This document shows positions 6,923 through 25,330 of a DNA stretch of 64,000 nucleotides, one piece after another. The DNA is from an uncultured Gammaproteobacteria bacterium. GTDB taxonomy: Bacteria > Patescibacteriota > Patescibacteriia > Buchananbacterales > UBA6539. The notes beneath the pieces are model-generated. The model searched no databases, had not been told where the DNA came from, and saw only the letters and a list, made by a program, of their open reading frames with translations. Within the stretch, counting starts at the first letter, position 1; the number at the start of each line of letters is the position of its first letter. The stretch lies in the NCBI GenBank assembly GCA_964540635.1, contig CAZINP010000005.1:24890-88889 (forward strand), written 5' to 3'. The position numbers were made by a program, and so were the translations under genes.

Positions 6923-6958
6923 TATTTTTCCGCTATTTTGTCAAATATTTTATTCGCT

Positions 6959-6967: not shown

Positions 6968-6974
6968 TTTAAGG

Positions 6975-11999: not shown

Positions 12000-12026
12000 A
12001 ATTTTATTCTTAGATTATTTTATTAA

Positions 12027-12551
12027 TTAATTTTTAGAATCTTTAACGGCATTAAGCACGTAAACTAAATTGCGCAAATTTCCCGCCAAGACATTGACAA
12101 ATCCGGAGACCGGCGCATTGATTTGACCAAGGAGCTGGCCCAAAAGCTGCTGCTTGGAAGGCAATTTGGAAAGTTCAATTACTTTTTCTTTGCCTACGAA
12201 CCTCTTTTCCAAAATACCGCCAACGGCAACCATGGCCGGATATTGTTTAGAAAAATCGGCCACAATTCTGGCCGGAGCGACCTCATCGCTTAAACCCAAA
12301 AGAGTACCAATACTGTTTTCAAAACTCTTGGGATCTGCATCTTCAAAACCGGCCTCTTTAAAAGCCAATTTCATAAGTGTTTTTTTGGCAACCGAATAAC
12401 CGACGTTTTCCGCTCGACATTTCTTTCTGAATTCTTCAATCTCCTTAACTTTCAAATTGTCGAAATTGACAAAAACAACGGATTTGGCGTCCTTGAGTTT
12501 TTGAGTAAACTCATTTAACTCTTTTTCTTTTTGTAATCTTGTTTTAGCCAT
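12027..12551 (-). CDS. rplJ: 50S ribosomal protein L10
   Basis: 174 aa; L10 family, upstream of rplL. Confidence 0.9.
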   Translation of the reverse strand: MAKTRLQKEKELNEFTQKLKDAKSVVFVNFDNLKVKEIEEFRKKCRAENVGYSVAKKTLMKLAFKEAGFEDADPKSFENSIGTLLGLSDEVAPARIVADFSKQYPAMVAVGGILEKRFVGKEKVIELSKLPSKQQLLGQLLGQINAPVSGFVNVLAGNLRNLVYVLNAVKDSKN

Positions 12552-12587
12552 ATATTACTTAATTCTTAATATTTTATAATAAAAAAA

Positions 12588-12612
12588 TGTGGCAAAAACC
12601 ACAGACTTTAAG
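12588..12612 (-). promoter_or_regulatory. Hairpin plus T-run in the rplJ 5' leader (possible L10-leader attenuator)
   Basis: Minus strand CTGTGG-tttttg-CCACA followed by T7, about 40 nt upstream of rplJ ATG. Confidence 0.3.
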
Positions 12613-12731
12613 CAAAACGATTTGCTTTTTACCTACATCGGGCGGCTTTTTGGCCTATTTAAGCGATAATCGCCCCAATGGTCTGAGGTTTAAATTTTAT
12701 AAATAAATTTTATCTTAAAATATCAATAATG

Positions 12732-13412
12732 TCAAGAAACAACCGTTCCTTTAAAATCCTTGCCGGCTAAAAATCTCTCTAAATTTGCGATATCGCTGCC
12801 TTTCATAACTACCAAGTCAATGCCCGAATTGCTGGCTAAATGGCTGGCAATGGGATCAAACGGAACGTGAGCGCCGGGAACCCATTTACGGCCGACTAAT
12901 TTCAGAAAATCAGGCCACCTCATATTCTTTTGAGCAACGGCATCTTTAAACTTTTTGGGGTCCTTGTCGTAAACAAAAGCAATATTGGAAAGATTAATAA
13001 CGGTTTTAGCCTTGTAAGCCTTAGCGATTAAAACCGCGTCTTTGTCCGAAGAAGATCCGGGCAAATAGCCGGCACCGACGATAATTTTTTTGCTTGTTTT
13101 AATCGCCTTGCTCGGGTTATCAATTACTCCCTCCAAAGCCGCCTGACCAAAAATTCCGCTCACCAGCTCGGCATTAAGCTTTGTCGTGGCAATGCCAATC
13201 CAATCCAAATCCCGATGAGTAATTTTTGGATTAACCTCTCGGGCGGCTTGATGATACTTTCTGCAAGTTCGGCCGCCGCCGCATATCAAAATAACACGAT
13301 TGTTTTTTTTAGTATAATTTAAAATTACTTTTTTGAATTTTTTCAAAAAATTAATATCAAGCTCTTCCGGGGCAATCAAAGAACCGCCCAAAGACATTAC
13401 AATTGTTTTCAT
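12732..13412 (-). CDS. pyrH: UMP kinase, archaeal-type (amino-acid kinase family)
   Basis: 226 aa; MKTIVMSLGGSLI...ILICGGGRTCRKY matches the short archaeal-type uridylate kinase pattern, not the about 240-aa bacterial PyrH. Confidence 0.7.
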   Translation of the reverse strand: MKTIVMSLGGSLIAPEELDINFLKKFKKVILNYTKKNNRVILICGGGRTCRKYHQAAREVNPKITHRDLDWIGIATTKLNAELVSGIFGQAALEGVIDNPSKAIKTSKKIIVGAGYLPGSSSDKDAVLIAKAYKAKTVINLSNIAFVYDKDPKKFKDAVAQKNMRWPDFLKLVGRKWVPGAHVPFDPIASHLASNSGIDLVVMKGSDIANLERFLAGKDFKGTVVS

Positions 13413-13432
13413 AAAATAAAATTTAATTACTA

Positions 13433-14452
13433 TTAATAATATTTGGCCTTGGCCGCCAGATGCTGTTCGTAAGTTTTACTATAAATTACTTTTCCTTCCG
13501 GAGTTGTTAAGAAATAATAATATTCGTTTGATTTTGGATAAATTGCAGCCATTATTGCCGAAAGGCTTGGATTTGATATCGGCCCGGGCGGCAAACCACG
13601 ATACTTATAGGTATTATAAGGATTGTCCAAACGAGTGTCGTTAAGGCTTGGTCTTGTTGTCCCCTTGTCGGTGATATAGTTCACTGTCGCGTCTGATTGC
13701 AGGCCGATATTATTTTTTAATCTTTTGTAAAAAATATCAGCCACCATCTTTCTGTCAGCATCACCCGGCACTTCTTTTTCAATAATAGAGGCTAGGGTTA
13801 AAATCTCATGAACAGTTTTGCCCTGGCTTTTTATTTCAGCCAAAAGCTCAGGGGTTATTTTTTTCCCAAAATTATCAAGTATTTTTTTGACAATATCCTG
13901 AATTGATGCGGTTTTATAAACACGGTAAGTATCGGGAAACAAATATCCTTCTAAATCAAGATTTTTAGGCCGACTGGATAGAAAATCATAATCATCCCAC
14001 CAAGACTGCTTTTTTTGCACAATTTCAAAAAAATCAGACTCAGAACCAAAGCCCTGCTCAGCCAAATACTTGGCATAATCTCTATTATTCCACCCCTCAA
14101 TAAAAGTAAGGGTTACTTCTTCAAAATTTTCATTTTTTATCTTTTGGGTCAAAATTTTTACAATCTCTTTTATGCTAAGATTTGAATCTAAAACGTATTG
14201 ACCCGGCTGCAAAGAACTTGCTTTCCCCTGCTGCCAAATATAAAGCTCAAAGACAACCCAATCACGAATAAAGCCTTGCTTTTTTAATTCTTTGCTGACA
14301 ATAACACTGCCCCACTTCGGTTCAACGCTAAAGGCTCTTTCTGCAGACTGGCTGCTCAAAGGAGCGTTTATGGTGTAAACGAAATAAGCGCTGTAGATTA
14401 CAGCGGCGAATATCAAACTTATAGTAAAAATTTTTATCAATTTTAACTTCAT
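13433..14452 (-). CDS. mltG: Endolytic murein transglycosylase MltG (YceG family)
   Basis: 339 aa; N-terminal TM; GLQSDATVNY and YNTYKYRGLPPGPISNP motifs. Confidence 0.85.
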   Translation of the reverse strand: MKLKLIKIFTISLIFAAVIYSAYFVYTINAPLSSQSAERAFSVEPKWGSVIVSKELKKQGFIRDWVVFELYIWQQGKASSLQPGQYVLDSNLSIKEIVKILTQKIKNENFEEVTLTFIEGWNNRDYAKYLAEQGFGSESDFFEIVQKKQSWWDDYDFLSSRPKNLDLEGYLFPDTYRVYKTASIQDIVKKILDNFGKKITPELLAEIKSQGKTVHEILTLASIIEKEVPGDADRKMVADIFYKRLKNNIGLQSDATVNYITDKGTTRPSLNDTRLDNPYNTYKYRGLPPGPISNPSLSAIMAAIYPKSNEYYYFLTTPEGKVIYSKTYEQHLAAKAKYY

Positions 14453-14467
14453 TTATATTTAATGACT

Positions 14468-15184
14468 TTAATATTTAAACGGTCCGGCCCACTCTTTTTT
14501 AACTCTTTCATATCTTTCCGGCGTGCCCGTATCAAACCACTGGGCGTTTGATTTATAGCCAAAGAGTTTCCCCGAATCAGCCACGGCCGGGAAAATGTCC
14601 TTTTCCATCATGACAAAATCTTTTTTGGGCAAATAGTCAAAAATTTCCGGTGAAATAATATAGTAACCCGAATTGGCGTATTTTGAAGGCGCCGATTCTC
14701 TGGTTGGCTTTTCAACAAATTCAATTATCTTGTCTTTATCAAGACGAGCGATACCAACTGGCGTCGGATCCTCAACTTCAACCAGGGCAATGGTGGCCAC
14801 GGCCTTATTCTTCTTGTGCTCTTCCAGCATGGCTTTAAAGTCACAAGCAAAAAGATTATCGCCATTGCACATAAAAAAATCTTCTTGTAAAATTTTGCCG
14901 GACTGCTTAAGCAGTAATAACGGACCGGCCGTTCCCAATCTATCTTTTTCGTGTAAATATTCAATCTTTGACTGAAAATTTTCCCCGCTGCCAAAATACT
15001 CTCTCATCTGATCGGCCAAATAACTAATTGATAAGTAAAAATCATTAACCCCGATATTTTTAAAAATATCCATTGTGTGCTCGGTCAAAGTCTTTCCCTG
15101 AACAGGGATTAAAGCCTTGGGCATTTGATATGTCAGAGGCCTCAAGCGCGTCCCTTCACCACCGGCCAATATAATTGAAATCAT
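14468..15184 (-). CDS. Sugar-phosphate nucleotidyltransferase (NTP_transferase family)
   Basis: 238 aa; ILAGGEGTRLRPLT signature. Confidence 0.8.
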   Translation of the reverse strand: MISIILAGGEGTRLRPLTYQMPKALIPVQGKTLTEHTMDIFKNIGVNDFYLSISYLADQMREYFGSGENFQSKIEYLHEKDRLGTAGPLLLLKQSGKILQEDFFMCNGDNLFACDFKAMLEEHKKNKAVATIALVEVEDPTPVGIARLDKDKIIEFVEKPTRESAPSKYANSGYYIISPEIFDYLPKKDFVMMEKDIFPAVADSGKLFGYKSNAQWFDTGTPERYERVKKEWAGPFKY

Positions 15185-15271
15185 ATATTTAGAATATTTA
15201 AGATATAAAAAATCTTACCAAATAAACCTTTTTTAAGCAAGACTAATTTGAATAAAAAATATGCAAAAATA

Positions 15272-16090
15272 CTACTTCAGAAGGAATAAATACGAAAGAA
15301 GAACAATGCCCAAAACAATACGGTAATAGGCAAATATTTTTAAAGAATTTCTCTCTAAAAATTTTAAAAAATATTTAATACATAAATAACCGGTGATGGC
15401 TGAGACAAAAAAACCAATCAACAAAGAATAAACATCGGCATAGGCTAGATCCATTTGAATCAAATCAATAAATTTTTTGAGGCCGGCTCCCAAAATTAAC
15501 GGCGTGGAAACCAAAAAAGAAAAATAAGCCGCGTCTTTACGGTTCAGTTTCTGACTTAAACCTGCTATAATGGTTATGCCGGAACGTGAAACTCCCGGGA
15601 TTAATGAAAGAATTTGCGCCAAGCCGATAACCAAAGAATCTTTGACATTCAATTTATTTAAGGGTTTTAAGAGCGAGGCAAACTTATCGGCAAAAAATAA
15701 TACCACACCAACCAAAATTAGCATGATTCCAACAACCACCGGACTTCTAAAAAAATTTTCAATCTCTTTTTCGGCCAACAGACCGACTAACCCAGCCGGG
15801 ATTGCGGCCAAAAAAACCAGCCACGCCAACCGTTGAGTATCGTTATTCTTCAAGTCCGGCGCGATCAAGCTTTGCAACCAGGCTTTAAGGTATTTTAAAA
15901 GATCAAAAAAGAAAAAAGCGATTAAGGCCACCATGGTGCCTAGGTGTAAAATAACATCAAAGGCAATATCGTCGGCAAAATTAAAACCGAAAATTTCATG
16001 CAAAATTACAAGATGCCCAGAACTTGAAACCGGCAAAAACTCAGTTAAGCCCTGAATAATACCCGCCAAAAAAGAAAAAAAATAATTCAT
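15272..16090 (-). CDS. uppP: Undecaprenyl-diphosphatase UppP (BacA)
   Basis: 272 aa; GLTEFLPVSSSGHL motif, 8 TM. Confidence 0.9.
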   Translation of the reverse strand: MNYFFSFLAGIIQGLTEFLPVSSSGHLVILHEIFGFNFADDIAFDVILHLGTMVALIAFFFFDLLKYLKAWLQSLIAPDLKNNDTQRLAWLVFLAAIPAGLVGLLAEKEIENFFRSPVVVGIMLILVGVVLFFADKFASLLKPLNKLNVKDSLVIGLAQILSLIPGVSRSGITIIAGLSQKLNRKDAAYFSFLVSTPLILGAGLKKFIDLIQMDLAYADVYSLLIGFFVSAITGYLCIKYFLKFLERNSLKIFAYYRIVLGIVLLSYLFLLK

Positions 16091-16109
16091 AAAATAAAAT
16101 TTTAAAATT

Positions 16110-16538
16110 ATGGATTTATCCTACATTATTATACCATTATTGGTATTAATTTCCAGCCAGGCAATTAAACTGGCCACCGACGGTATCAAAGGAAATTTTG
16201 ATTTTAAAAACTTTTTAATCAGCTACGGCGGCATGCCGTCTTCGCACACTTCATTCTCTACCTCAATTACAACCTTAATCGGATTAAGGCAGGGGTTTGA
16301 TTCGCCACTCTTTGCCGCCTGTTTGGTTTTTACGCTTTTGGTGATAAGAGACGCGACATCATTTAGAAATCTGCTTGGCAAACAAGCCCAAGTTTTTAAT
16401 AAATATATTGACAAGCTGCCCGGAAAAGAAAAAGTCGGCCTGAAGAAATTTAGAGAGAGGTTTGGTCACACCTATTTGGAAGTAATTGGCGGTTTAATCT
16501 GGGGAATAGCCCTAACTTTTTATTTAAATTTAGTATAA
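16110..16538 (+). CDS. Divergent PAP2-family membrane protein (DUF212 type)
   Basis: 142 aa; GGMPSSHTSFSTS motif characteristic of the divergent PAP2 family. Confidence 0.65.
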   Translation: MDLSYIIIPLLVLISSQAIKLATDGIKGNFDFKNFLISYGGMPSSHTSFSTSITTLIGLRQGFDSPLFAACLVFTLLVIRDATSFRNLLGKQAQVFNKYIDKLPGKEKVGLKKFRERFGHTYLEVIGGLIWGIALTFYLNLV

Positions 16539-16609
16539 TTTTTAGATTTTTCTTGACACGGTTTATGAAAAGTGTTAAACTTAAAACCTAAGTCATAACA
16601 GAAAAAATC

Positions 16610-16714
16610 ATGTTTTTTGACGACGAAATGACCACCCCGGCTGCTGATGATACCGCGGCCGAACCTTCAACCGACGAAACTCCGGCTGAAGAATCAACCG
16701 AAGAAGCTGCTTAA
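16610..16714 (+). CDS. Small highly acidic peptide (34 aa: MFFDDEMTTPAADDTAAEPSTDETPAEESTEEAA)
   Basis: Not in ORF track (too short); possible promoter TTGACA-17-TAAACT at about 16552..16580 and own terminator immediately downstream. Confidence 0.35.
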   Translation: MFFDDEMTTPAADDTAAEPSTDETPAEESTEEAA

Positions 16715-16730
16715 AGCTTAGATAAAAAAG

Positions 16731-16756
16731 ATCCGCCTTTTGGCGGATTTTTTTTG
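16731..16756. terminator. Bidirectional rho-independent terminator (small ORF / fpg)
   Basis: A-run, ATCCGCC-tttt-GGCGGAT, then T8. Confidence 0.75.
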
Positions 16757-16759
16757 TTC

Positions 16760-17626
16760 TCATTTTTGACATTCCGAACAGTAATGCGTTCCCCTGCCAT
16801 TTAATTTTATTCGCCTAATTTCCCCACCGCAACGCTTACATTTCTTCCCTTTTCGTCCATAAACCTTTAAAAATGGAACCATGCCGCCCGGCTTACCGGT
16901 TAAAGTTACATAAGTATCAGCAGAAGTTCCTTTTTTTGAAATTGCCAAATCAATTATTTTATTAATACACTCATACAGCTTTTTTATCTCAATGGGTTCA
17001 AGTGATGCAGCCAGCCTCATTGGCAAAATGCCGGCACAAAAACATGATTCATCGCAATAAATATTGCCGATACCGCCGATTAATTTTTGATCCAAAAGAA
17101 TTAATTTAATAAAACGATTTGGATATTTCTTAACGATTGATTGGAAATAATTAAGATTAAATTCCTTGCTTAAAGGCTCGGGTCCATGCTCCATCACAAT
17201 TTGAGCTACTCCCTGATCATCAATTAATCGCGCCCAGCCAAACTTGCGTAAATCATTAAAATATAAAATTGAGCCATCACTAAAATTTAGAATCAAATGA
17301 GTAAATTTATTTGGCAAATCCTCAAGTCCGCCTTTTTGAGGGTGTCCACCAAAAACCGCTTTGCCTTTTTGGGGACGAAAAATCAACTGACCGGTGAGTT
17401 TCAGATGGATTGCCAAAGAAAGAGGCCCTTCTAAATCTAAAACCAAAACCTTAGAAAGACGAGAAATACTTTTAATCTTCTTATTTTTAATCAATTTTTG
17501 AAATTCTAAAACACTGTATGGTTTTACCATCTTAGACCAATTACATTCACTAGATTTAACAACTTTTCCCTTTACGACTTTTTGCAATTGGCGTTTTAGG
17601 GTTTCAACTTCTGGTAGTTCCGGCAT
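16760..17626 (-). CDS. mutM: Formamidopyrimidine-DNA glycosylase (Fpg/Nei family)
   Basis: 288 aa; N-terminal MPELPEVE catalytic Pro, C-terminal C4 zinc finger. Confidence 0.9.
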   Translation of the reverse strand: MPELPEVETLKRQLQKVVKGKVVKSSECNWSKMVKPYSVLEFQKLIKNKKIKSISRLSKVLVLDLEGPLSLAIHLKLTGQLIFRPQKGKAVFGGHPQKGGLEDLPNKFTHLILNFSDGSILYFNDLRKFGWARLIDDQGVAQIVMEHGPEPLSKEFNLNYFQSIVKKYPNRFIKLILLDQKLIGGIGNIYCDESCFCAGILPMRLAASLEPIEIKKLYECINKIIDLAISKKGTSADTYVTLTGKPGGMVPFLKVYGRKGKKCKRCGGEIRRIKLNGRGTHYCSECQK

Positions 17627-17835
17627 AAAAAAATTACTCTTAACCTTTAAATCTTAACACTTTTTTGAACATAAAAAAAGCCTAAAAAAGGTTTATGTAT
17701 TAAAGCAAAAAAATCCAATTTAAAGCTAAAAAATTTTTTAATTTTTTACTATTGTTTCTTTGATTGACTTTGGCTATCTTTTTTGTTAAGGTTGGCAAAG
17801 AATAGTTCGGGAATTAGAACAACGGGAGAATAAGA

Positions 17836-18039
17836 ATGACATCGATTACCGATAGTTGGCAGTCGGTGTTAAACCGACTAAAAAACGTTTTGGAAGAACT
17901 TGACATGAAAAGTTGGATTTACCCTCTCAATCTCCACTCCTACCAAAACGGGGTGCTGAGTGTAGAGGTTCCAACCGATTTCTTTCGCGGCTGGATAAAT
18001 GAAAATTATCTGGCGCTGATAGAACAAGCCTGTCACTAA
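17836..18039 (+). CDS. dnaA: DnaA-like N-terminal domain I, ending at an in-frame TAA
   Basis: WQSVLNRLKNVLEEL..WIYPL..L.V.VP..F...WINENYLALIEQ matches DnaA domain I; same reading frame as the next ORF. Confidence 0.6.
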   Translation: MTSITDSWQSVLNRLKNVLEELDMKSWIYPLNLHSYQNGVLSVEVPTDFFRGWINENYLALIEQACH

Positions 18040-18042
18040 ACG

Positions 18043-19176
18043 TTGCCCGATTTCAAGGGCATTCAAATTCTTGTCAACGAGCATTCCGCTCAGCTTGACG
18101 AGGAGACAGAGCTTGCCAAGGGCAAGCAAGCACAACCGGCATCTGCCGAAAAAGACAAAGCGACAGCCAAACAACGAACTTGGCTGATTGAACGCTTTGT
18201 GGTTGGCCCTGAAAACCGAGTGGCCCACGCGGTTGCCACCAGCGTTACCGAAAAAATAGAGGGGTGGCCGGAATGGCCGATTGTTTACCTCTATGGCCCG
18301 TGTGGGGTTGGCAAAACGCACTTGTTAAAAGGCATTGCCGAAATTGCTTATGCCAAGCAATGCCGGCAAAAATTGATAAGTGCCGAAGCCCTACTTAACG
18401 AATTTTCGGCCTCTATCTCCGAGAAGACCAGTGAGTCGTTTCGCAGGAAGTATCGCTCTTTAAGATTGCTCTTGATAGACGACGCAGATTTCCTACTTAA
18501 TGGGAATAAAATAAAATTCCGCGAGGAATTAGTCTTTCTCATTGAAGCGATCATTGGCAATCACGGTTGCGTGGTGTTTTGTGCCAACAACACGCCTCAA
18601 AAAACGCCAAGCACCAATGTTAAGCTTAACTCATTGCTGGTCTCAGGCCTGACAATTGAGATTAAAGCTCTTGGGAAAAAAACGCTCGAAGAAATTATTG
18701 AATATCGAGCGAAAAGAAAAAAAATCAGCCTCAAAAAAGAGGAAATAGAGGCAATTGCGGCAAGATGCTCAGACGTTCGAGAAGCGCTCGGCATCCTGAG
18801 TGGCATTAGGCTGCTCTCAAGCTCTTACGACCGTCCGGTTGATAGCGAGATCTTGGGCGAAGCCTGGGGGCACCTTAGCCCCAAGCAGGATTCACCACTA
18901 ACCATTCGTCGCATCCAAGAAGTAGTTGCCAAGTATTTCAGGATAAGACCGGAACTGCTAAACGGAAAGTCTCGAACTCACACTGTGAGCTATCCGAGAC
19001 AAATCGCCATGTACCTTTGCCGGAAATTTTTCCCGGATAAACCGATCAAGGAGATCGCCATAGCCTTTGGCAGGGATTACAGCACCGTGATCTATGCCTG
19101 CAAACAAATAGAGGAGGGCGACCTTGCCTCCCCTACAGACCTAAAAGCAATTGAAGAATTGCTCATCAAGGCCTGA
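18043..19176 (+). CDS. dnaA: DnaA-like domains II-IV (AAA+ ATPase plus C-terminal DnaA-box-binding domain)
   Basis: GPCGVGKTHL Walker A, LLIDDADFL Walker B, C-terminal RPELLNGKSRTHTVSYPRQIAMYLCRKF; ORF begins at TTG one codon after the TAA; GC about 50% against about 38% background. Confidence 0.7.
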   Translation: MPDFKGIQILVNEHSAQLDEETELAKGKQAQPASAEKDKATAKQRTWLIERFVVGPENRVAHAVATSVTEKIEGWPEWPIVYLYGPCGVGKTHLLKGIAEIAYAKQCRQKLISAEALLNEFSASISEKTSESFRRKYRSLRLLLIDDADFLLNGNKIKFREELVFLIEAIIGNHGCVVFCANNTPQKTPSTNVKLNSLLVSGLTIEIKALGKKTLEEIIEYRAKRKKISLKKEEIEAIAARCSDVREALGILSGIRLLSSSYDRPVDSEILGEAWGHLSPKQDSPLTIRRIQEVVAKYFRIRPELLNGKSRTHTVSYPRQIAMYLCRKFFPDKPIKEIAIAFGRDYSTVIYACKQIEEGDLASPTDLKAIEELLIKA

Positions 19177-19177
19177 A

Positions 19178-19212
19178 TTGCCGCTTAAGTCCAAAACTTG
19201 CGGCTTTTTTAT
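19178..19212 (+). terminator. Rho-independent terminator after the dnaA-like gene
   Basis: GCCGC-ttaagtccaaaactt-GCGGC-T6. Confidence 0.6.
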
Positions 19213-19261
19213 ATAATAAAAAGCCCGGAGTAAACCGGACTAAAGCGACAAGGCCAAACTG

Positions 19262-19669
19262 TCAGCTTGTCGGAATCTGAATTCTTTTGCCACATCCCGG
19301 GCATTGAAAATTCTTTGTGACTGCGTCATCACTTGAGATGTAGCCAAACCAAGCCTCGAGTGCCTGACTTGCCACTTGACCTAAACTGCAACCGCGACGT
19401 TGCGCCTCAGCCGAAAGCCAATTTAGGGTTTCTTGGTTGATTTTTGACAAATCAACCTGAACCAGCAAAGGATTTTCGGGAGCATCTCCCATTTTATCCG
19501 AATTGGGTTCAAGAATTTTTGCCCCCTTTTTTCGAAAAAGAGCCAGCGTTGAATTGATGGCAAAAATTGCCAAATCAATTGGGCTGAGGCCGCAAGCGGC
19601 GGCCGCATTTTTCAGCGCCAAGAATAAATCTGGCGTAACTTTCAAAACCCGATACTTTCTTACTTCCAT
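19262..19669 (-). CDS. Hypothetical protein with ribbon-helix-helix-like segment and C-terminal CPxCG zinc ribbon
   Basis: 135 aa; LSAEAQRRGCSLGQVASQALEAWF (RHH-like), FQCPGCGKRIQIP; GGAGG SD 5 nt before ATG; GC-elevated. Confidence 0.45.
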   Translation of the reverse strand: MEVRKYRVLKVTPDLFLALKNAAAACGLSPIDLAIFAINSTLALFRKKGAKILEPNSDKMGDAPENPLLVQVDLSKINQETLNWLSAEAQRRGCSLGQVASQALEAWFGYISSDDAVTKNFQCPGCGKRIQIPTS

Positions 19670-19748
19670 TTGGTCCTCCGTTTCGGTCGGTTTTGTGAAT
19701 ATTTAATCTAAATTAAAACGACAAAAATGTCAAATTATTCAAATAATT

Positions 19749-20117
19749 TTATTTACTTTTTTCGATCATAATACAGGCATTGGCAATACATTCCAAATTA
19801 TTTTCTTGACAATATTTAATGCTATTCTGACTTTCACTGCCGGGCTGAAACCAAACCCTTTTAATGCCTTTGACTATCACCTGCGGTAAAATTGATTCGG
19901 CAATTTCCGGCGGAACAATAAAAACTGCCACATCGATTTTTTCAGCATACTCTTGCAAATTTTTATACACTTTTAGATTGGCAATTTCGCCGCCTTTTGG
20001 GTTAATCGGGACAACTTTATAGCCGGCGCCATATAAATCCATTAAAACCTTATAGCCGTATTTCTCCGGATTATTACTGGCGCCAACAATGGCGTAAGTG
20101 AAATTTTTATCAATCAT
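19749..20117 (-). CDS. CoA-binding domain protein (YccU-like)
   Basis: 122 aa; AIVGASNNPEKYGYKV Rossmann-like CoA-binding signature. Confidence 0.75.
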   Translation of the reverse strand: MIDKNFTYAIVGASNNPEKYGYKVLMDLYGAGYKVVPINPKGGEIANLKVYKNLQEYAEKIDVAVFIVPPEIAESILPQVIVKGIKRVWFQPGSESQNSIKYCQENNLECIANACIMIEKSK

Positions 20118-20118
20118 A

Positions 20119-20661
20119 TTATTTTACTTTAATTAATGGATAAACCCATCCGGGCTGCCAGCTCCATGGCGCGGTTACTGCCTGCAAAAGAGGCACGCCG
20201 ATGATTAAATTTTCCAAAGCATATTGGGTGGCGCGATGCCCGATAATTAAAACCTGGGTGCCATCATAATTTTTCAATAAATTATTTAAAAAATCTTTCA
20301 TTAAAGCCGTTGTTTGTTCGTAGCTTTGTCCGCCGGGAAACGGCTCAGAAATATGTTTGGGTTTTAATTCATCAACAATATTACTTGGCTTTCTTTCGAA
20401 TTCACCATAATCACATTCTCTTAATCTTTTATCCTTAATAATTTTAATTTGTTTTTTGCCGAAAGCAATCTCGGCGGTCATATATGAACGTTTTAGATCA
20501 GAACAAAAGACGGCGGCAAAATCTTCATCAGCGTTTCTCTCCCCCATTTCTTTTGCCTGTTTTACGCCAAGGTCTGAGAGCTCCACATCATAGTGGCCGG
20601 ACGCCAAATGGTTTTCATTATCAAAAGTAGTTGCGTGAGATTCAAAAAAAATAGTAACCAT
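20119..20661 (-). CDS. Histidine phosphatase family protein (phosphoglycerate mutase-like)
   Basis: 180 aa; N-terminal FESHATT catalytic His region, ...LIIGHRATQ. Confidence 0.65.
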   Translation of the reverse strand: MVTIFFESHATTFDNENHLASGHYDVELSDLGVKQAKEMGERNADEDFAAVFCSDLKRSYMTAEIAFGKKQIKIIKDKRLRECDYGEFERKPSNIVDELKPKHISEPFPGGQSYEQTTALMKDFLNNLLKNYDGTQVLIIGHRATQYALENLIIGVPLLQAVTAPWSWQPGWVYPLIKVK

Positions 20662-20741
20662 ATATATAAATTAACTTGACTTTTTATTAAATAATGCTAA
20701 TATTTAACTTCGTTTAAACCGTACAACAGAGGAGATTAGCA

Positions 20742-20957
20742 ATGGAAAACGAAAGGAAATTTTGGGCTGAAATGTTTATCAGCCAAGCGCTGGCGGCTCA
20801 TTTTTCAGCCGCCGAAGTCTTTACCAGATTTGGCCTGGCCTGCTGCACTGATTGCATGGCAGCAAAATCAGAAACTGTTCGCATGGCCTGCGAGGCCTAC
20901 AATATTGACCTTGAAGCACTCTTGTTGGCACTCAACAGCTTGGAAATACCAAGTTAA
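20742..20957 (+). CDS. DUF1858 (hybrid-cluster-protein-associated redox disulfide) domain protein
   Basis: 71 aa; conserved GLACCTDC cysteine motif. Confidence 0.55.
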   Translation: MENERKFWAEMFISQALAAHFSAAEVFTRFGLACCTDCMAAKSETVRMACEAYNIDLEALLLALNSLEIPS

Positions 20958-20979
20958 AAAAACGCAATCTTTGCTCTTT

Positions 20980-21003
20980 ACACGCCACTTGGCGTGTTTT
21001 TTT
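20980..21003. terminator. Rho-independent terminator
   Basis: ACACGCC-actt-GGCGTGT-T6 after the DUF1858 gene; also at the 3' end of the convergent csaA-like gene. Confidence 0.7.
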
Positions 21004-21337
21004 AAAACATCTTATTACCCAAGGCAACATCTTTATCGGGCGAAATCAAAACCACACCATCGTTATCATCAGCAAGTCCAAGGGTTAAAACCTCGGAAAC
21101 AAAAGGGCCGATTTGTTTTGGAGAAAAATTAACAACACCCAAAACCTCCTTGTGCAAAAGATCTTCTTTGGTGTAATTTTTTGTAATTTGAGCTGAAGAC
21201 TTTTTGACACCGATTTCCGGGCCAAAATCAATCAATAATTTGTACGCCGGCTTTCTTGCTTCCAAAAAATCTTCCACTTTGATAATTCTACCAACCCTAA
21301 TGTCAACCTCCTCAAAATTTTTATACGAGATAACCAC
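21002..21337 (-). CDS. tRNA-binding domain protein (CsaA / EMAP-like OB fold)
   Basis: 111 aa; DIRVGRIIKVE...KLLIDFG tRNA-binding arm signature. Confidence 0.75.
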   Translation of the reverse strand: MVISYKNFEEVDIRVGRIIKVEDFLEARKPAYKLLIDFGPEIGVKKSSAQITKNYTKEDLLHKEVLGVVNFSPKQIGPFVSEVLTLGLADDNDGVVLISPDKDVALGNKMF

Positions 21338-21341
21338 AATT

Positions 21342-21764
21342 TTATTTTAAAGTTATAAATACCGCACCAATCACAATAAGCAATATTCCAATTATTGTTT
21401 TATAGTTTAAAGCTTCGCCCAAAAAGAAAGCAGCCAAAACCAAAACAAAAACCACGCTTAATCTATCAAGTGCGGCTACACCCGTTGCCGGGCCATTTTT
21501 TAAAGCAACAAAATAAAAAAGCCAAGACAAAGCGCCGGCTAAACCCGAAAAAACAATAAAAGCAAAAGCTTTAGTGTCAATGGTAGAAATCAATTTATGC
21601 TTGCCTAATAAAAAGGCAGTCCCGACCAAAAAGCCGGCCATAATAACCGAACGAACAGCAGTAGCTAAAGTTGCGTCAATATTCTTTACACCAATTTTTC
21701 CAAGAATTGCCACGAGCGCGGCAAAAATTGCCGAAAGTAAGGCAAAAATGATCCAAGTTGACAT
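21342..21764 (-). CDS. Small DMT/EamA-family transporter (4 TM)
   Basis: 140 aa; four hydrophobic helices, EamA half-domain. Confidence 0.6.
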   Translation of the reverse strand: MSTWIIFALLSAIFAALVAILGKIGVKNIDATLATAVRSVIMAGFLVGTAFLLGKHKLISTIDTKAFAFIVFSGLAGALSWLFYFVALKNGPATGVAALDRLSVVFVLVLAAFFLGEALNYKTIIGILLIVIGAVFITLK

Positions 21765-21768
21765 AAGA

Positions 21769-22128
21769 TTATTCTCTTATAATAACATGTTTAAAAAATT
21801 TTTCTTGAAAAAAAACTTTTTGCTCAATTTCTTGGTCAGTCAGATTAATACCACCAGGCAAAACCACCAATTTATCGTCATCATCTTCCAGACGATGAAT
21901 TATGGCCAAACACTTGCCTTTGGCCTTATCTAACGGTTTATCATTAATATAGTAAGCGTCCAACTCTTCACCGTCAGGGGCCATAACACCCGGCAAATAT
22001 CCGTAATTGCATTGATAAATTATGTCGTGTTTCGGATGCTTACTGCCCATTTTTCTATCAATAATAATCTCAACCTCTTTGCCCAAAAAACTCTTAGCCA
22101 GTAAAAAAGATTTTGATTCTTGACTCAT
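21769..22128 (-). CDS. Inorganic-pyrophosphatase-family protein, unusually short
   Basis: 119 aa; YQCNYGYLPGVMAPDGEELDAY matches the PPase active-site motif CNYGYI..DGDPLDV, but the protein lacks about 50 N-terminal residues of canonical family I PPases. Confidence 0.5.
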   Translation of the reverse strand: MSQESKSFLLAKSFLGKEVEIIIDRKMGSKHPKHDIIYQCNYGYLPGVMAPDGEELDAYYINDKPLDKAKGKCLAIIHRLEDDDDKLVVLPGGINLTDQEIEQKVFFQEKFFKHVIIRE

Positions 22129-22134
22129 AAAAAA

Positions 22135-22608
22135 TTATAAATCATTAACTTCGGTTAATTCATATTCCAAAATTACATCATCTTGGCCAAAAAGAAATTT
22201 TCCTTTGAATTTCCTATCATCCAAAAACAAAGGCAGCCAATAAACATCATCCGGCCACATTTCTTGAAAAGGAATTTTATCTATATCAAACCATTGAGGC
22301 CTCATTTCTTCGCTCTCGCTTGGTTCGCCTAAAAAATTATGCGCCTTAAAAATATGAACTTGTAAAATTTCTTGGTTACCTTGAAACTCAAAATCAATAA
22401 TTCCAAACTTCTCTAAATTGTTTGCCTTAATCCCGGCTTCTTCTTCAAGTTCTCTGACAGCTGCCAAATCAATGGTTTCGCCAGCTTCAACCTTACCGCC
22501 AAAACCATTCCACCTTCCATTACCAAAGCCGCGCTTTTTAAAGCCCAATAAAATTCTTTGATTTTGATGAATTATGCAGAGAGTTAAATTTCTTTTGAAA
22601 TTATTTTC
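22135..22608 (-). CDS. NUDIX hydrolase
   Basis: Start moved to MENNFKRN (ATG overlaps secA stop); Nudix box GGKVEAGETIDLAAVRELEEEAGI. Confidence 0.8.
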   Translation of the reverse strand, partial: ENNFKRNLTLCIIHQNQRILLGFKKRGFGNGRWNGFGGKVEAGETIDLAAVRELEEEAGIKANNLEKFGIIDFEFQGNQEILQVHIFKAHNFLGEPSESEEMRPQWFDIDKIPFQEMWPDDVYWLPLFLDDRKFKGKFLFGQDDVILEYELTEVNDL

Positions 22609-25330
22609 CATGGCACTGCTTAAACTTTTTGCCCGAACCGCATGGACACAAATCATTTCGCCCCACTTTAACGCCGTTATAGTGCGTTTGGGCTTGATCA
22701 ATGGAATCCTGTCCGGCCCTCTCTTTTGCTTGTTTGTCCTGAGGAGTTTGATCGGCAATTTGAGCAATTGAGGATTTTAACCCCGAACCGGCAGACGGTG
22801 CGTTAAAAACTAAATTCTTTGGCTGAGTGGATGGCGTCGGAACAAAATTTGCCGCAAAGCCCGCCTTGAAAATGGCATAAACAATTTGTTTTCTAATCAT
22901 CACCAATAGTTCTTTAAACATGCCAAAACTCTCGCGCTTATATTCAATTAACGGATCACGTTGACCATAACCGCGCAAACCAATGCCGGTTCTTAAATGA
23001 TCAATTGCATCCAAATGTTCAATCCAAAGAGTGTCAATGCTTCTTAAGGCAATTCCTTTTTCAATTTGGCGCATTGCATCATCTTTGCCAACAACTTTTA
23101 CAACCTTCTCTTCCATGTCATTGTAGGTCTCTACGGCCAAACGATAAATATAGCCAATTAATTTTCCACGAGAACTGTTATCCTCAATGTCATTACCCGC
23201 TTCAGAAGCAATTTCATTCAATTTTAAACGCAAGTTTGGATTTACAATAAAAATTGTTGAAATAACCTCGTAAATCTCATTCAAGTCCCAAGTATTTTCA
23301 TCGGCTGACGCAGTATGAAAATTAACCACTTCGGTAATTTCTTCCAAAACCAAATCCAAAACAATTGCCTTCAAATCTTGCATATCAAGAACTTGACGCC
23401 TCTTTTTATAAATTGTTTCTCTGTGTTTGTTTAAAACGTCATCATATTCAACCAAATTTTTTCTGGTGTCAAAATGATAACCTTCCACTTTTTTTTGCGC
23501 CGATTCCAATGATTTGGAAATTAACCTGTTTTCAATCGGCATATCATCCGGCACTTTTAGCGTCTCCATCATTTTCTTTATTCTTTGCCCGCCAAATATT
23601 CTCATCAAATCATCATCAACTGAAACGTAAAATTGGGTAAGCCCCGGATCGCCTTGACGTCCGCCACGACCACGAAGCTGATTATCAATTCTTCTTGATT
23701 CATGTCGTTCAGTGCCAATAATGCATAAACCGCCCAAATCCCTGACTCTAATTTCCTCTTCTTTATTGCCGTCTTCACCGCCGAGCTTAATATCCACACC
23801 GCGGCCGGCCATGTTTGTAGCCACCGTGACAGCGCCCAACTTACCGGCGTTAGCAATAATATGAGCTTCTTTCTCGTGAAATTTTGCATTTAAAATTTGA
23901 ACTTCAATGCCTTCACGGCGTAAAAGTTCGCCAAGTAACTCGTTCTTTTCAATTGAGATTGTACCGATCAAAACCGGTTGGCCCAATTCGTGACGATGCT
24001 TAACTTCCTGAATAACCGCCTTAAATTTACCTTCTTCATTTTTAAAAATTTTGTCCGGCAAATCTTTTCTGGCCATGCCCTTGTTTGTCGGAATTACGGT
24101 TACGTCAAGTTTATAAATTTTAGAAAACTCTTCGGCTTCAGTTGCGGCCGTACCGGTCATACCGGCCAATTTATTGTATAAACGAAATAAATTCTGGAAA
24201 GTAACGGTGGCCAGGGTTCGACTTTCTTTTTGAACAGCAACTCCTTCCTTGGCTTCAATTGCTTGATGCAAGCCCTCGGAATAACGACGGCCATACATCA
24301 TACGGCCCGTAAATTCATCAACAATTATCACTTCCCCATCTTTGACAACATAGTCACGATCGCGCTTAAACAAAGCATGGGCGCGCAAAGCCTGCTCAAT
24401 GTGGTGAACTTCAGAAATGCCGGCATCGGTATAAATATTTCCCAACCCAAGCCACTTTTCAATTTTGTTAATTCCTTCGTCGGTCAAAGTGGCCGCGCGC
24501 ATTTTCTCATCAATGTTATAATCCTCGTCTTCTTTTAACTGAACCACCAATTTGGCGAATTTGTAATATTTATCGGTTGAATCCGCATCAGGCGAAGAAA
24601 TAATCAACGGTGTTCTGGCTTCATCAATTAAAATGCTGTCAACTTCGTCAACAATGGCATAGTTTAATTCACGCTGGACCATCATCTCAATATCACCGAC
24701 CATATTATCGCGCAGATAATCAAAACCGAACTCATTATTGGTACCATAAGTTATATCGGCTCTATAAGCATCTTTTCTGGGAACTTGTTTTAGATGAACC
24801 AATTTTTCGTCTTTGGCGTTTTCATTTGTATAATCCGGATCATAAACAAAAGCACCTTCGTGAATAACAACACCGACACTCACGCCCAGAGCATGATAAA
24901 TCGGGCCCATCCAACCGCAGTCGCGTCTGGACAAATAATCATTAACCGTTACCAAATGGCAACCATTGCCGGTCAATGAATTCAAATATAAGGCTGTTGT
25001 GGCTGAAAGAGTTTTACCTTCACCGGTTTTTTGTTCGGCAATTTGACCTCGATGCAAACAAACACCAGCCATAAGCTGAACGTCATAATGTCTGATGCCA
25101 AGGGTTCTTTTTGCCGCTTCGCGCACAGTGGCAAAAGCCTCGGGTAAAATATCATCCAAACCCTTGCCTTGACTGAGTAAATCTTTAAACTTTTGCGTTT
25201 GAGCCTTAAGTTCGTCATCTGATAATTGGCTAATTTTTTTCTCAAATTCATTAATCTGCTCAACTAACGGGGTTAAGCTTTTTATATATTTTTCATTGGC
25301 ATCGCCGATTATTTTAGAAAAAATTCCCAT
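22601..25330 (-). CDS. secA: Preprotein translocase ATPase SecA
   Basis: 909 aa; DEAD-motor domains, C-terminal zinc finger CPCGSGKKFKQCHG. Confidence 0.95.
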   Translation of the reverse strand: MGIFSKIIGDANEKYIKSLTPLVEQINEFEKKISQLSDDELKAQTQKFKDLLSQGKGLDDILPEAFATVREAAKRTLGIRHYDVQLMAGVCLHRGQIAEQKTGEGKTLSATTALYLNSLTGNGCHLVTVNDYLSRRDCGWMGPIYHALGVSVGVVIHEGAFVYDPDYTNENAKDEKLVHLKQVPRKDAYRADITYGTNNEFGFDYLRDNMVGDIEMMVQRELNYAIVDEVDSILIDEARTPLIISSPDADSTDKYYKFAKLVVQLKEDEDYNIDEKMRAATLTDEGINKIEKWLGLGNIYTDAGISEVHHIEQALRAHALFKRDRDYVVKDGEVIIVDEFTGRMMYGRRYSEGLHQAIEAKEGVAVQKESRTLATVTFQNLFRLYNKLAGMTGTAATEAEEFSKIYKLDVTVIPTNKGMARKDLPDKIFKNEEGKFKAVIQEVKHRHELGQPVLIGTISIEKNELLGELLRREGIEVQILNAKFHEKEAHIIANAGKLGAVTVATNMAGRGVDIKLGGEDGNKEEEIRVRDLGGLCIIGTERHESRRIDNQLRGRGGRQGDPGLTQFYVSVDDDLMRIFGGQRIKKMMETLKVPDDMPIENRLISKSLESAQKKVEGYHFDTRKNLVEYDDVLNKHRETIYKKRRQVLDMQDLKAIVLDLVLEEITEVVNFHTASADENTWDLNEIYEVISTIFIVNPNLRLKLNEIASEAGNDIEDNSSRGKLIGYIYRLAVETYNDMEEKVVKVVGKDDAMRQIEKGIALRSIDTLWIEHLDAIDHLRTGIGLRGYGQRDPLIEYKRESFGMFKELLVMIRKQIVYAIFKAGFAANFVPTPSTQPKNLVFNAPSAGSGLKSSIAQIADQTPQDKQAKERAGQDSIDQAQTHYNGVKVGRNDLCPCGSGKKFKQCHGK

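Follow-up and report, generated by a model that had tools for sequence, protein, structure and literature searches.

The interrupted dnaA gene

The window, by which we mean the whole 64-kb stretch of DNA analysed, carries a dnaA gene in two pieces, lying between mutM and a convergent gene for a 135-aa protein. The features of the locus are listed below, with the promoter, the terminators and the junctions as predicted from the sequence.

16760..17626, minus strand: mutM (Fpg), native left flank, with Pfam Fapy_DNA_glyco, H2TH and zf-FPG; syntenic in L086-L089 and in L170/L171
17671..17681, no strand: left junction ATAAAAAAAGC, the last part that aligns to the 88-bp spacer of L170 (manual and pairwise comparison)
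17764..17792, plus strand: dnaA promoter within the insert, TTGACT at 17764-17769, a 17-nt spacer and an extended -10 TGtTAAGGT at 17784-17792
17824..17830, plus strand: Shine-Dalgarno (SD) sequence GGGAGAA, 5 nt upstream of the ATG
17836..18039, plus strand: dnaA fragment 1, 67 codons and TAA; domain I helices 1-3 and strands 1-2, without strand 3 (from DnaA_N, the P0002 model and 4TPS)
18037..18039, plus strand: in-frame TAA (codon alignment; present in both assemblies)
18043..19176, plus strand: dnaA fragment 2, TTG-initiated, 377 codons; domain I strand 3, linker, AAA+ domain and domain IV
19180..19210, plus strand: dnaA terminator, a GCCGC..GCGGC hairpin followed by TTTTTT, read from the sequence and unreported by the terminator scan
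19215..19225, no strand: right junction AATAAAAAGCC, an imperfect direct repeat of 17671-17681, where the alignment to the L170 spacer resumes
19222..19241, minus strand: terminator of the native 135-aa gene (terminator scan), homologous to a hairpin in the L170 spacer
19262..19669, minus strand: 135-aa gene, native neighbour outside the insert; orthologues of 53-65% identity, directly upstream of mutM in L170/L171

An initial annotation had recognized DnaA domain I in the first ORF and the AAA+ and DnaA-box-binding domains in the second, and Pfam bears this out: the 67-aa product matches DnaA_N (E=4.7e-17), although it lacks strand 3, and the 377-aa product matches Bac_DnaA (8.8e-30) and Bac_DnaA_C (1.8e-24). 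The two ORFs do share one frame, as was also claimed, with the lone TAA at 18037-18039 between them and a read-through sequence of ...EQACH*TLPDFKG. The break had, however, been placed between domains I and II, and it actually falls inside domain I. In the structure modelled for P0002 (pLDDT 84.5), an intact relative, the third beta-strand of this domain comprises residues 75-80; the TAA takes the position of residue 68, where helix 3 ends and strand 3 is still to come, and the alignment to the solved domain I of Bacillus subtilis (4TPS) reaches query residue 77. Fragment 2 contains Walker A (GPCGVGKT), Walker B (LLLIDD), box VII (KLNSLL), the sensor II arginine and the motifs PRQIAMYLCR and DYSTV. 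Its TTG start lies 3 nt past the stop and has no SD sequence upstream. Apart from the break, this downstream ORF is intact and keeps all motifs of its clade.

The stop codon is real. The same TAA, at a site outside any homopolymer, again separates ORFs of 67 and 377 aa in L001, an independent Logan assembly (SRR8925758) that is 99.0% identical to the window and differs from it by 103 SNPs over 10.9 kb. A stop due to an error of sequencing or consensus, or present as a minority allele through strain mixture, with an intact 446-aa gene in the cells, would fit a codon one base away from sense in a metagenome assembly of a region with strain mosaicism. Agreement on the TAA and on both ORF calls between two assemblies with 103 nearby differences, at a non-homopolymer site, makes this very improbable. 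Genuine breaks are moreover known from this gene family: in a second clade member, a 13-bp deletion is unambiguous in two samples. Reassignment of TAA was ruled out, TAA being the usual stop in the window, where it ends 51 of the 69 ORFs listed. Signs of programmed read-through or recoding were lacking, homologues having GAG, GAA or AAA at the stop site. In the codon alignment the codon at 18037 is GAG/GAA (Glu) in L002, L004 and L005 and AAA (Lys) in L173; since intact relatives encode Glu or Lys here, a single base change (GAA or AAA to TAA) created the stop. It is the only lesion in the gene, whose dN/dS against relatives is 0.16, and both observations speak for a recent break. To this extent the description of the gene as decaying holds: it carries an inactivating lesion and, with a genuine stop in its frame, most probably represents a recent pseudogene and not the working origin gene of the cell.

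The view that this locus is not the chromosomal origin is supported as well. Cumulative GC skew, strong and uniform, falls over the whole 64 kb with no turning point. DnaA boxes with two mismatches or fewer are absent from both intergenic regions flanking dnaA, as the initial annotation had noted for box clusters, and the nearest one-mismatch boxes are at 13533 and 23178. It had also noted that dnaN is not adjacent, and we found none in the gene calls of near-identical L001 up to ~6 kb from dnaA or among the ~15 window ORFs scanned against Pfam. The missing dnaN has no diagnostic value, since the native dnaA loci of relatives in this lineage likewise have no adjacent dnaN, and no box clusters. 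Within the window, tblastn with intact P0002 matched only 17836-19170, with no second DnaA homologue. Replication is presumably driven by an origin and an initiator outside the window, and a second, working dnaA probably exists elsewhere in the genome. As a warning for annotation, the window dnaA is unsuitable for placing oriC or for rotating the genome.

A derived DnaA clade and its native locus

In a protein search the window DnaA is 53-55% identical to the intact P0002-4, and identity then drops to 32%. A profile of this clade, searched against 1.84 billion representatives in a library that collapses everything above 50% identity, gave 908 bits and 273 bits for the next match, and a neighbour-joining tree supports the clade with a bootstrap of 100%. 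This small clade is highly derived: 30-32 of the 69 near-universal DnaA positions are altered in its members, compared with a mean of 0.71 in 116 other DnaAs. All stay below the TIGR00362 cut-off of 343.9 bits (289.6 for the window read-through protein, 243.7 for ORF2 alone and 300-313 for intact clade members), whereas P0244 and P0016 reach 379 and 576. PF11638, PF00308 and PF08299 nevertheless exceed their gathering scores; domain I, an AAA+ domain with Walker A/B and the helix-turn-helix of domain IV are thus present. The reading frame of the window copy is interrupted, with TAA at codon 68 in two assemblies.

The arginine finger is considered essential to the way in which DnaA opens the origin with ATP. 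In box VII, the RLxSRF of the 116 DnaAs and of 8BTG and 1L8Q has become KLNSLL in the window and K(L/I)(N/D)SL(L/M) in the clade, so that the arginine finger (Escherichia coli R285) and R281 are lost (numbering as in PMC6727663). Further changes in the clade convert NPLF to WPIVY and FFHTFNAL to F(L/V)F(I/L)I(D/E)AI. The DNA-contact motif is DHTTV in the clade and DYSTV in the window copy alone (H415Y, T416S).

This pattern could also be read as that of a DnaA-box-binding regulator that is no longer an initiator, a role the truncated window product would keep. The clade keeps the domain IV signature, Walker A/B and sensor II but has lost the finger and the FFHTFNAL region throughout, and omega values of 0.13-0.35 indicate constraint, if weaker than in neighbouring genes. 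We consider such a role improbable: it is conjecture in itself, it presupposes an expression of ORF2 that is purely hypothetical, the DHTTV to DYSTV changes unique to the window copy speak against it, and no DnaA boxes for autoregulation lie near the gene.

The window DnaA has its nearest relatives in other Patescibacteria, whose chromosomal dnaA genes lie in a conserved order, tmk-thy-dnaA-gatB, or more fully dCMP deaminase-kinase-tmk-thyX/thyA-dnaA-gatB. P0244, from a Patescibacteria MAG, is the best match to the clade profile outside the clade; it has the same synteny and passes TIGR00362. Our earlier idea of a rare alien paralogue was dropped on the strength of the synteny with P0244 and L176, which shows that, in a related lineage, the clade supplies the native dnaA of the chromosome. 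Since the clade holds the native dnaA locus in other genomes, its lineage is chromosomal rather than alien, and the shared gene order makes it an orthologue of chromosomal dnaA instead of an ancient paralogue. It evolves several-fold faster than the neighbouring genes: at equal dS, identity is 53% for DnaA and 90% for GatB, and omega is 0.35 for dnaA compared with 0.02-0.19 for its neighbours. At the syntenic locus of L173/L174, dnaA has suffered an independent 13-bp frameshift deletion, found in two samples. The clade dnaA would accordingly seem dispensable, bacteria evidently surviving without an intact copy.

As for its distribution, the genomes to which we assign the clade have SecA proteins ~61-62% identical to that of the window, and a non-exhaustive protein search found no closer DnaA from dozens of genomes with 70-75% SecA identity. 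The DnaA of L176 (49% identical) was missed by the word-indexed protein search that gave the 53-55% relatives, so clade members may have gone undetected in closer relatives of the window, a situation that would speak for vertical descent. For the same reason, and because the profile library collapses everything above 50% identity, the apparent rarity of the clade is tentative. A GTDB genome scan with the 377-aa protein, whose exact-peptide patterns are too specific for 50% relatives and whose species representatives exclude the window's own genome, returned only DnaAs of 29-34% identity (Nitrospirota, Clostridia), and a metagenome scan with two N-terminal patterns of the clade alignment gave matches of 21-30%. 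L092, from the metagenome scan, proved to be an unrelated ParAB-linked dnaA.

The clade can be described as a natural finger-less DnaA lineage at the native locus of some CPR bacteria, fast-evolving and repeatedly disrupted. The wider interest lies in this gene family more than in the window copy, and the questions it raises can be tested with existing metagenomes and a simple biochemical comparison.

Probable insertion beside mutM and probable loss of function

In L170/L171 the gene order is HisPhos, CoA_binding, 135-aa gene, 88 bp of spacer and mutM, with dnaA absent, and four more distant relatives (L086-L089) have no dnaA between secA and mutM. The acquisition proposed in the initial annotation is upheld in the sense that dnaA is inserted relative to these relatives. 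Both ends of the insert carry the A-rich, imperfect junction repeat of 9-11 nt; a repeat search around dnaA found no IS-like or att-like repeats. The predicted promoter is recognizable in clade members too: a TTGACT-17-TGnTAAGGTTGGC architecture is kept upstream of dnaA in L002, L004 and L005, and L176 has TTGACT-17-TAGAGT. A consensus promoter scan did not flag this conserved promoter. The SD sequence is conserved as AGGAGAA(T/C)(A/G)(G/T)C(C)-ATG in L002, L004, L005, L175 and L176. On these sequence comparisons, the window dnaA is a single-gene insertion of ~1.5 kb with its own predicted promoter, SD sequence and terminator. The interval between secA and mutM is a variable region.

The empty sites point to a gain of dnaA at the mutM site rather than a loss. 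The L170/L171 contigs are short (1.2-2 kb) and related to the window by only 60-80% identity at the protein level, and dnaA may instead have been lost from the site in these two. No donor closer than 55% identity is found among the nearest relatives of the window DnaA. Between the window and L001, dnaA has no SNPs, compared with 9-27 per kb in adjacent genes, and the sole difference within 16877-19286 is a 1-nt indel at 19211. The SNP-free tract (16877-19211) is weak evidence for a recent arrival, because it is only one of four long identical tracts between the two assemblies; its use as proof of a very recent arrival was dropped on that account.

The 135-aa gene had been paired with dnaA in the initial annotation as the second half of an initiator-plus-regulator module. 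Relatives, however, join this gene to mutM without dnaA, which makes it a native neighbour and not a partner; in L170/L171 it again has the HisPhos and CoA_binding genes as neighbours, and shares the SD sequence and an elevated GC content. Its assignment as a ribbon-helix-helix/zinc-ribbon protein is likewise unproven. Pfam and NCBIfam give no hit below E=0.02, the only invariant cysteines are C94, C123 and C126 (one CxxC and one further Cys), and the AlphaFold model, of low confidence (pLDDT 55), has two helix-helix pairs and a C-terminal hairpin. The product may consist of helix-helix units in tandem (RHH-like) and carry a C-terminal CPxC.

Base composition had been taken as a further sign of foreign origin. 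The underlying observations are correct: the dnaA pieces have GC contents of 0.43 and 0.48, compared with 0.379 +/- 0.029 in 57 window ORFs without an SD sequence, and SD motifs precede dnaA (GGGAGAA, 17824-17830) and the 135-aa gene (GGAGG). The argument built on them fails. The same combination occurs in a response regulator conserved in synteny (25453-25833), the 135-aa gene, a DUF1858 gene and their orthologues, and dnaA at the native locus of relatives is likewise GC-rich with an SD sequence. Because conserved native genes share the pattern, high GC and an SD sequence are no evidence of foreign origin here; in these genomes they mark a stable class of native genes and not recent transfer, a result that matters for island prediction in CPR genomes.

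That a decaying initiator and small-regulator module came from a plasmid, phage or integrative element is largely refuted, and we regard it as extremely improbable. The insertion of dnaA relative to relatives, the variable region between secA and mutM and a convergent small gene whose modelled product may bind DNA would all suit such a module. The native status of the 135-aa gene, found without dnaA, does not, and neither does the result of the searches: IMG/VR yielded no relative of the window DnaA, and tblastn against phage and plasmid collections gave only hits of at most 30% identity, annotated as or resembling chromosomal dnaA. Integrase, relaxase, partition and IS genes are absent, no tRNA was found in the window, and Rfam reported nothing there at gathering thresholds, with chance-level matches only in the GC-rich 60.5-61.6 kb stretch. 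The nearest DnaAs are chromosomal ones of other Patescibacteria in the conserved tmk-thy-dnaA-gatB housekeeping context.

The reading we favour, with moderate confidence, is that of a laterally inserted and recently inactivated extra dnaA, a young and dispensable pseudogene of an accessory copy; both the lateral source and the loss of function are deduced from the comparisons given above. A complete dnaA transcription unit of ~1.54 kb (roughly 17682-19214) would have entered the 88-bp spacer between the 135-aa gene and mutM in a Candidatus Buchananbacteria (CPR) chromosome. Most likely it came from a related lineage of Patescibacteria, was taken up as DNA and was then integrated at an A-rich terminator sequence by microhomology or illegitimate recombination. 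A later single-base change at codon 68 (GAA or AAA to TAA) would then have broken domain I. At most two products could now be made, namely a 67-residue domain I fragment without strand 3 and possibly an ORF2 protein, a DnaA without a working domain I that would appear only upon re-initiation at the TTG without SD sequence.

Could this instead be the sole dnaA of the organism, relocated to mutM and either working as two polypeptides or tolerated as a loss through DnaA-independent initiation? The stop and the next start are 3 nt apart, the downstream ORF is intact with the motifs of its clade, and a dN/dS of 0.16 records historic purifying selection. The clade moreover holds the native dnaA locus in other genomes and is broken there too in L173/L174. 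Initiators without an arginine finger are not impossible either, since DnaA(R285A) can support growth of E. coli with a re-engineered oriC (PMC6727663). Against this stand a cut within the fold of domain I, before strand 3; a TTG without SD sequence in a gene class that otherwise relies on one; relatives with no dnaA at the mutM site; and a strong, uniform GC skew that argues for a normal, fixed origin elsewhere. We therefore regard a sole copy as unlikely, and prefer the inactivated accessory copy.

A broader proposition is that a Buchananbacteria-like sub-lineage of Patescibacteria is freeing chromosome replication from canonical DnaA, which we put forward as doubtful but worth stating. Several observations point in this direction: the loss of the finger and ~30 other residues, an omega of ~0.35 compared with 0.02-0.19, at least two independent breaks and apparent mobility as a bare cassette. 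If it were true, and no second dnaA existed, these bacteria, free-living or episymbiotic, would initiate replication either independently of DnaA or with a radically altered DnaA.

Comparison with known systems

Canonical DnaA, as defined by TIGR00362 and the structures 8BTG (B. subtilis) and 1L8Q/2HCB (Aquifex aeolicus), shares with the window protein the four-part layout, including sensor II and the helix-turn-helix of domain IV; the full-length alignment to 8BTG has E=7.7e-50. Clade members in relatives also hold the same chromosomal locus as a DnaA that passes TIGR00362. The clade differs from canonical DnaA in its scores of 290-313 bits (cut-off 343.9), its 30-32 deviations at 69 positions and the missing finger, and the window copy differs further in being interrupted and away from the origin.

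Known DnaA paralogues include Hda/HdaA and second DnaA copies such as those encoded by the two chlamydial dnaA genes. Like these, the window protein is a DnaA-related AAA+ protein other than the origin-linked initiator. Hda lacks domains I and IV, whereas the window DnaA keeps both, and it scores 52 bits with TIGR03420, for which the cut-off is 195.

In E. coli DnaA the arginine finger is R285 in box VII, and the R285A mutant is viable only with an origin of high-affinity boxes (PMC6727663). The R281A and R285A mutants lack the same residues as those replaced in the clade, and by analogy the R285A precedent suggests a way in which a natural finger-less DnaA could still initiate. In contrast to these laboratory point mutants, the change in the clade is natural, fixed and accompanied by ~30 other substitutions.

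Cyanobacteria in which dnaA is lost or dispensable have been reviewed (PMC7198777). With such dnaA-losing lineages, among them some cyanobacteria and insect endosymbionts, the clade has in common relaxed constraint and disruption of dnaA. In those cyanobacteria the loss of dnaA goes along with an irregular GC skew, whereas the skew here is strong and regular.

Finally, the window dnaA resembles nonsense pseudogenes of recent transfers in its single inactivating substitution, its position in a variable region and its absence from relatives. It differs from ordinary transferred pseudogenes in that the gene is normally essential and single-copy, and in that it would have arrived as a bare transcription unit without mobility genes.

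The interrupted reading frame

The dnaA-like gene consists of two ORFs in the same frame, separated by a TAA at 18037-18039 and one ACG codon, exactly as the initial annotation had described, and dnaA homology in the window is limited to 17836-19170.

Features of the dnaA segment (window coordinates)
17671-17681: left junction, ATAAAAAAAGC, on the mutM side; last alignment with the spacer of contig L170
17764-17769, + strand: TTGACT of the dnaA promoter, followed by a 17-nt spacer and TGtTAAGGT
17824-17830, + strand: dnaA Shine-Dalgarno sequence (SD), GGGAGAA
17836..18039, + strand: dnaA ORF1, ATG start, 67 codons; PF11638 (DnaA N-terminal domain), E=4.7e-17
18043..19176, + strand: dnaA ORF2, TTG start, 377 codons; PF00308 ATPase, 8.8e-30; PF08299 helix-turn-helix, 1.8e-24
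19180-19210, + strand: dnaA terminator, GCCGC..GCGGC-T6
19215-19225: right junction, AATAAAAAGCC and the terminator hairpin of the 135-aa gene; alignment with the L170 spacer resumes

The 67-aa and 377-aa ORFs are likewise present in L001, a 12.6-kb Logan contig of a near-identical strain (SRR8925758, an anaerobic-digester metagenome; PMC7842101) that matched window 11688-22619 at 99.0% identity with 103 mismatches; the stop is thus common to two assemblies. Since TAA is an ordinary stop here, ending 51 of the 69 ORFs listed in the window, its reassignment was excluded. The closest intact homologues carry GAG or GAA (Glu) at the stop site and the related contig L173 carries AAA (Lys), so that a single base change made the TAA.

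The cut had been placed between domains I and II. As predicted by AlphaFold for the intact relative P0002 (mean pLDDT 84.5), domain I comprises helices at 8-18 and 21-28, strands at 32-37 and 40-45, helices at 48-57/59-69 and a strand at 75-80, followed by a disordered linker. As the window sequence aligns to P0002 without gaps across this stretch, the stop (residue 68) comes where helix 3 ends and ahead of the third strand, and the alignment to the solved B. subtilis domain I (4TPS) reaches query residue 77. The cut therefore lies inside domain I; on this model the 67-aa product would be one sheet strand short, and the strand (GIQILV) would fall to ORF2.

Chromosomal setting and insertion site

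The window is ordinary chromosome. Its SecA (22601-25330) showed 70-75% identity to dozens of Candidatus Buchananbacteria/Patescibacteria proteins, dcw/mur genes, secA, a gene for type IV pilus assembly (PilM) and CTP synthase are among the ORFs that were scanned or aligned, and gene order agrees well with that of relatives (mraY-murD-ftsW-murG-murC-murB, response regulator, secA, a variable stretch, mutM, DUF212, bacA). GC skew was below zero in almost every 1-kb bin and its cumulative curve ran from −0.23 to −8.60 with no turning point, so the window holds neither origin nor terminus. Neither the genes called around dnaA nor the scanned ORFs yielded a dnaN, DnaA boxes with ≤1 mismatch are missing between 13533 and 23178, and there are none with ≤2 mismatches in either spacer flanking dnaA. 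The earlier view that this is not the chromosomal origin stands. Over the whole window, boxes with ≤1 mismatch numbered 27 against 17.9 expected. DnaA-box-like 9-mers cluster at 6798-6967 (intergenic 6716-6974), namely TTTTCCACA, TTATCCCCA and TCATCCACT together with a perfect box, TGTGGATAA, on the other strand, upstream of a 143-aa ORF heading the dcw cluster (mraZ position) and with no GC-skew turn there; a second perfect box lies at 1710-1718. A 762-aa ORF at 9261-11549 (+, the minority strand) had no Pfam match at E ≤0.001.

The 135-aa gene (19262-19669, −), which the initial annotation had paired with dnaA as an RHH/zinc-ribbon gene, has a product with four homologues at 53-65% identity. 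In L170 and L171, Logan contigs from other samples (39% GC), the gene order is DUF1858, His_Phos_1, CoA_binding, the 135-aa gene, an 88-bp spacer and mutM, the proteins being 58-80% identical to those of the window, and dnaA is absent between the 135-aa gene and mutM. The pairing is contradicted by this arrangement. The L170 spacer matches both flanks only up to the two junctions, and the window therefore holds ~1.54 kb extra, edged by an imperfect A-rich repeat of 9-11 nt. In four more distant relatives (L086-L089) dnaA is absent anywhere between secA and mutM. The claim that dnaA was inserted is borne out by these comparisons; on parsimony, taking L086-L089 as outgroups although the interval varies among them too, the difference is more probably a gain in the window than a loss in L170/L171. 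All parts of a complete transcription unit are present in the extra segment, and its promoter and SD architecture is kept upstream of homologues in the related contigs L002, L004, L005, L175 and L176.

Gene content of the whole secA-mutM interval varies among L086-L089. L001 is ~570 bp longer than the window between the NUDIX gene and secA (window ~22593-22619 vs L001 10930-11495), with a 192-aa ORF; the junction at which this segment is missing from the window is marked by a 27-bp overlap. Across 11688-22619 the two strains form a mosaic of tracts without differences (1.1-2.3 kb) and tracts diverged by 1-5%, a pattern that suggests that homologous recombination is frequent in the population. 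Between the strains, the 135-aa gene shows 6 nonsynonymous and 5 synonymous changes. The SNP-free tract that holds dnaA (16877-19211) ends at the right junction and supports a recent spread by recombination only weakly, because it is one of four such tracts and covers also 750 bp of mutM.

High GC and SD sequences had been read as marks of foreign origin. The window has 62 ATG ORFs: 57 with AT-rich leaders that lack GGAG/GAGG (GC 0.379 ± 0.029) and five with an SD, four of them with a GC of 0.46-0.48 (Mann-Whitney p=0.001). The GC-rich, SD-led minority includes the response regulator at 25453-25833, whose syntenic orthologues in L086-L088 are the same; the AP endonuclease beside mutM in L086-L088 is GC-rich and SD-led too, and the L170 orthologues of the 135-aa and DUF1858 genes retain both properties. 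At its native locus, dnaA is SD-led in L002, L175 and L176, with a GC of 0.55 vs 0.48 in the surroundings, 0.56 vs 0.46 and 0.54 vs 0.48, respectively. Because orthologues in relatives keep the property, it defines a gene class that is stable in the lineage and does not mark recent transfer, and this part of the earlier reasoning falls away. Class members in the window are 17836-19176, 19262-19669 (−), 20742-20957, 25453-25833 and 60834-61224 (−); majority genes have a GC of ~0.38 and no SD, minority genes 0.46-0.58 and a strong SD, several being opposed to their neighbours' direction. The ORF at 60834-61224 (~129 aa, GC 0.58, AAGGAGT 8 nt ahead of a GTG start) has a coiled-coil-like sequence, a Cys-rich C-terminus (CSQCGAHCTCG) and a terminator downstream; this region gave no Pfam match for the opposite-strand ORF and no Rfam match.

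A derived DnaA clade and the origin of the window copy

A word-indexed protein search returned three intact relatives (P0002-P0004, 448-451 aa) at 53-55% identity, the next match being at 32%, and a four-sequence profile run against 1.84 billion representatives gave a clade representative at 908 bits and the next at 273 bits; both searches can miss clade members, as L176 is not in the word-indexed result and representatives collapse >50% identity. At 69 near-universal columns (≥95% conserved among 116 other DnaAs) the window copy deviates 32 times and P0002-P0004 30-31 times, whereas the 116 average 0.71 deviations, with at most 5. Box VII changed from RLxSRF to KLNSLL, with loss of R281 and of the arginine finger R285 (E. 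coli numbering; PMC6727663). Further changes are YNPLF to WPIVY, FFHTFNAL to F(L/V)F(I/L)I(D/E)AI and SSDR to (G/C)AN(K/N), while Walker A, Walker B, the sensor II arginine and the domain IV signatures are retained. All clade members scored 290-313 bits with TIGR00362, below its cut-off of 343.9.

The best non-clade match to the profile, P0244 (MFA5029574.1), annotated as DnaA in a Patescibacteria MAG, passed TIGR00362 with 379 bits; its locus reads dCMP deaminase, kinase, tmk, tmk, thyA-like, dnaA, gatB, x, miaA. The clade contigs L002/L003, L173/L174 and L176 have this gene order and the same SD. L002 shares a 90% NusG cluster with a Candidatus Buchananbacteria MAG and with the contig of P0244. 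An alien paralogue was rejected on this synteny, which shows the clade to be the chromosomal dnaA of a related sub-lineage, evolving unusually fast. Between L175 and L002, identity is 70% for GatB, 78% for dCMP deaminase and 35% for DnaA; between L176 and L002 it is 90% for GatB, 87% for L1, 97.5% for dCMP deaminase and 53% for DnaA. For the latter pair omega is 0.35 in dnaA vs 0.02-0.19 in eleven neighbours, at similar dS (1.1 vs 0.5-2.0). Among the twelve genes compared, dnaA (L176 8473-9873, L002 10001-11356) evolves fastest. Within the clade dN/dS is 0.13-0.24, by which its DnaA is constrained, yet weakly for an initiator.

In L173/L174, from two samples (99.5% identity over 12.8 kb), the syntenic dnaA has a deletion of 13 bp between Walker A and Walker B that splits it into ORFs of 181 and 236 aa, a second, independent disruption of the clade gene. 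Relative to P0003, these copies (L173 9294-10612, L174 5711-7029) show 58% identity in the N-terminal and 85% in the C-terminal half. RVT_1 reverse-transcriptase genes occur a few kb downstream of the native dnaA (L002 17349-18644; L176 16634-17506), and a PIF1-family helicase and a Fic/RhuM gene lie near that of L176.

In a neighbour-joining tree the six clade sequences grouped with 100% bootstrap on a long stem, the window copy being basal. DnaA identity to P0002/L002 is 55% for the window and 53% for L176; SecA of the window and of the clade host genomes, as we infer the host match, is ~61-62% identical, and L176/L002 GatB 90%. Given the clade rate and a SecA identity of only ~61%, the window DnaA is more similar than vertical descent would predict. 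Many genomes are closer to the window by SecA, yet none gave a closer DnaA in searches that can hide clade members. This excess similarity and the empty site favour lateral acquisition from an unsampled member of the clade sub-lineage. For plausibility only, we note that CPR bacteria encode competence (ComEC-type) DNA-uptake systems (PMC12102498) and that type IV pilus assembly is represented in the window by at least one gene (PilM). The plasmid, phage or integrative element previously proposed as source found no support: no phage or plasmid link for dnaA emerged from the viral, phage and plasmid collections searched, and no mobility gene or tRNA was found near it.

Functional status of the split gene

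The window dnaA carries a single lesion, with no frameshift and no truncation, and its dN/dS against relatives is 0.16 (dS saturated); its inactivation would therefore be recent relative to the history of the gene. Four private changes fall at near-universal positions (F232L, P279L, E282K, H415Y) and the sister group shares three; these numbers show no clear acceleration. ORF2 is without an SD (upstream sequence AACAAGCCTGTCACTAAACG). Among the three stops, UAA is in general the one read through least efficiently. The large fragment could arise only through termination-reinitiation at the adjacent TTG and would have no folded domain I; that the split gene yields a two-part or regulatory product is a less probable reading. 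From the one recent lesion, the missing SD of ORF2 and a fragment lacking folded domain I, we call the window dnaA a probable young pseudogene, and we infer a second, working dnaA elsewhere in the genome. Of the initial interpretation, an inserted, off-origin and damaged gene stands; the reasons, the partner gene and the mobile-element source do not. The window feature itself is of modest interest. Worth following is the lineage to which it belongs, a fast-evolving and repeatedly broken dnaA without the arginine finger.
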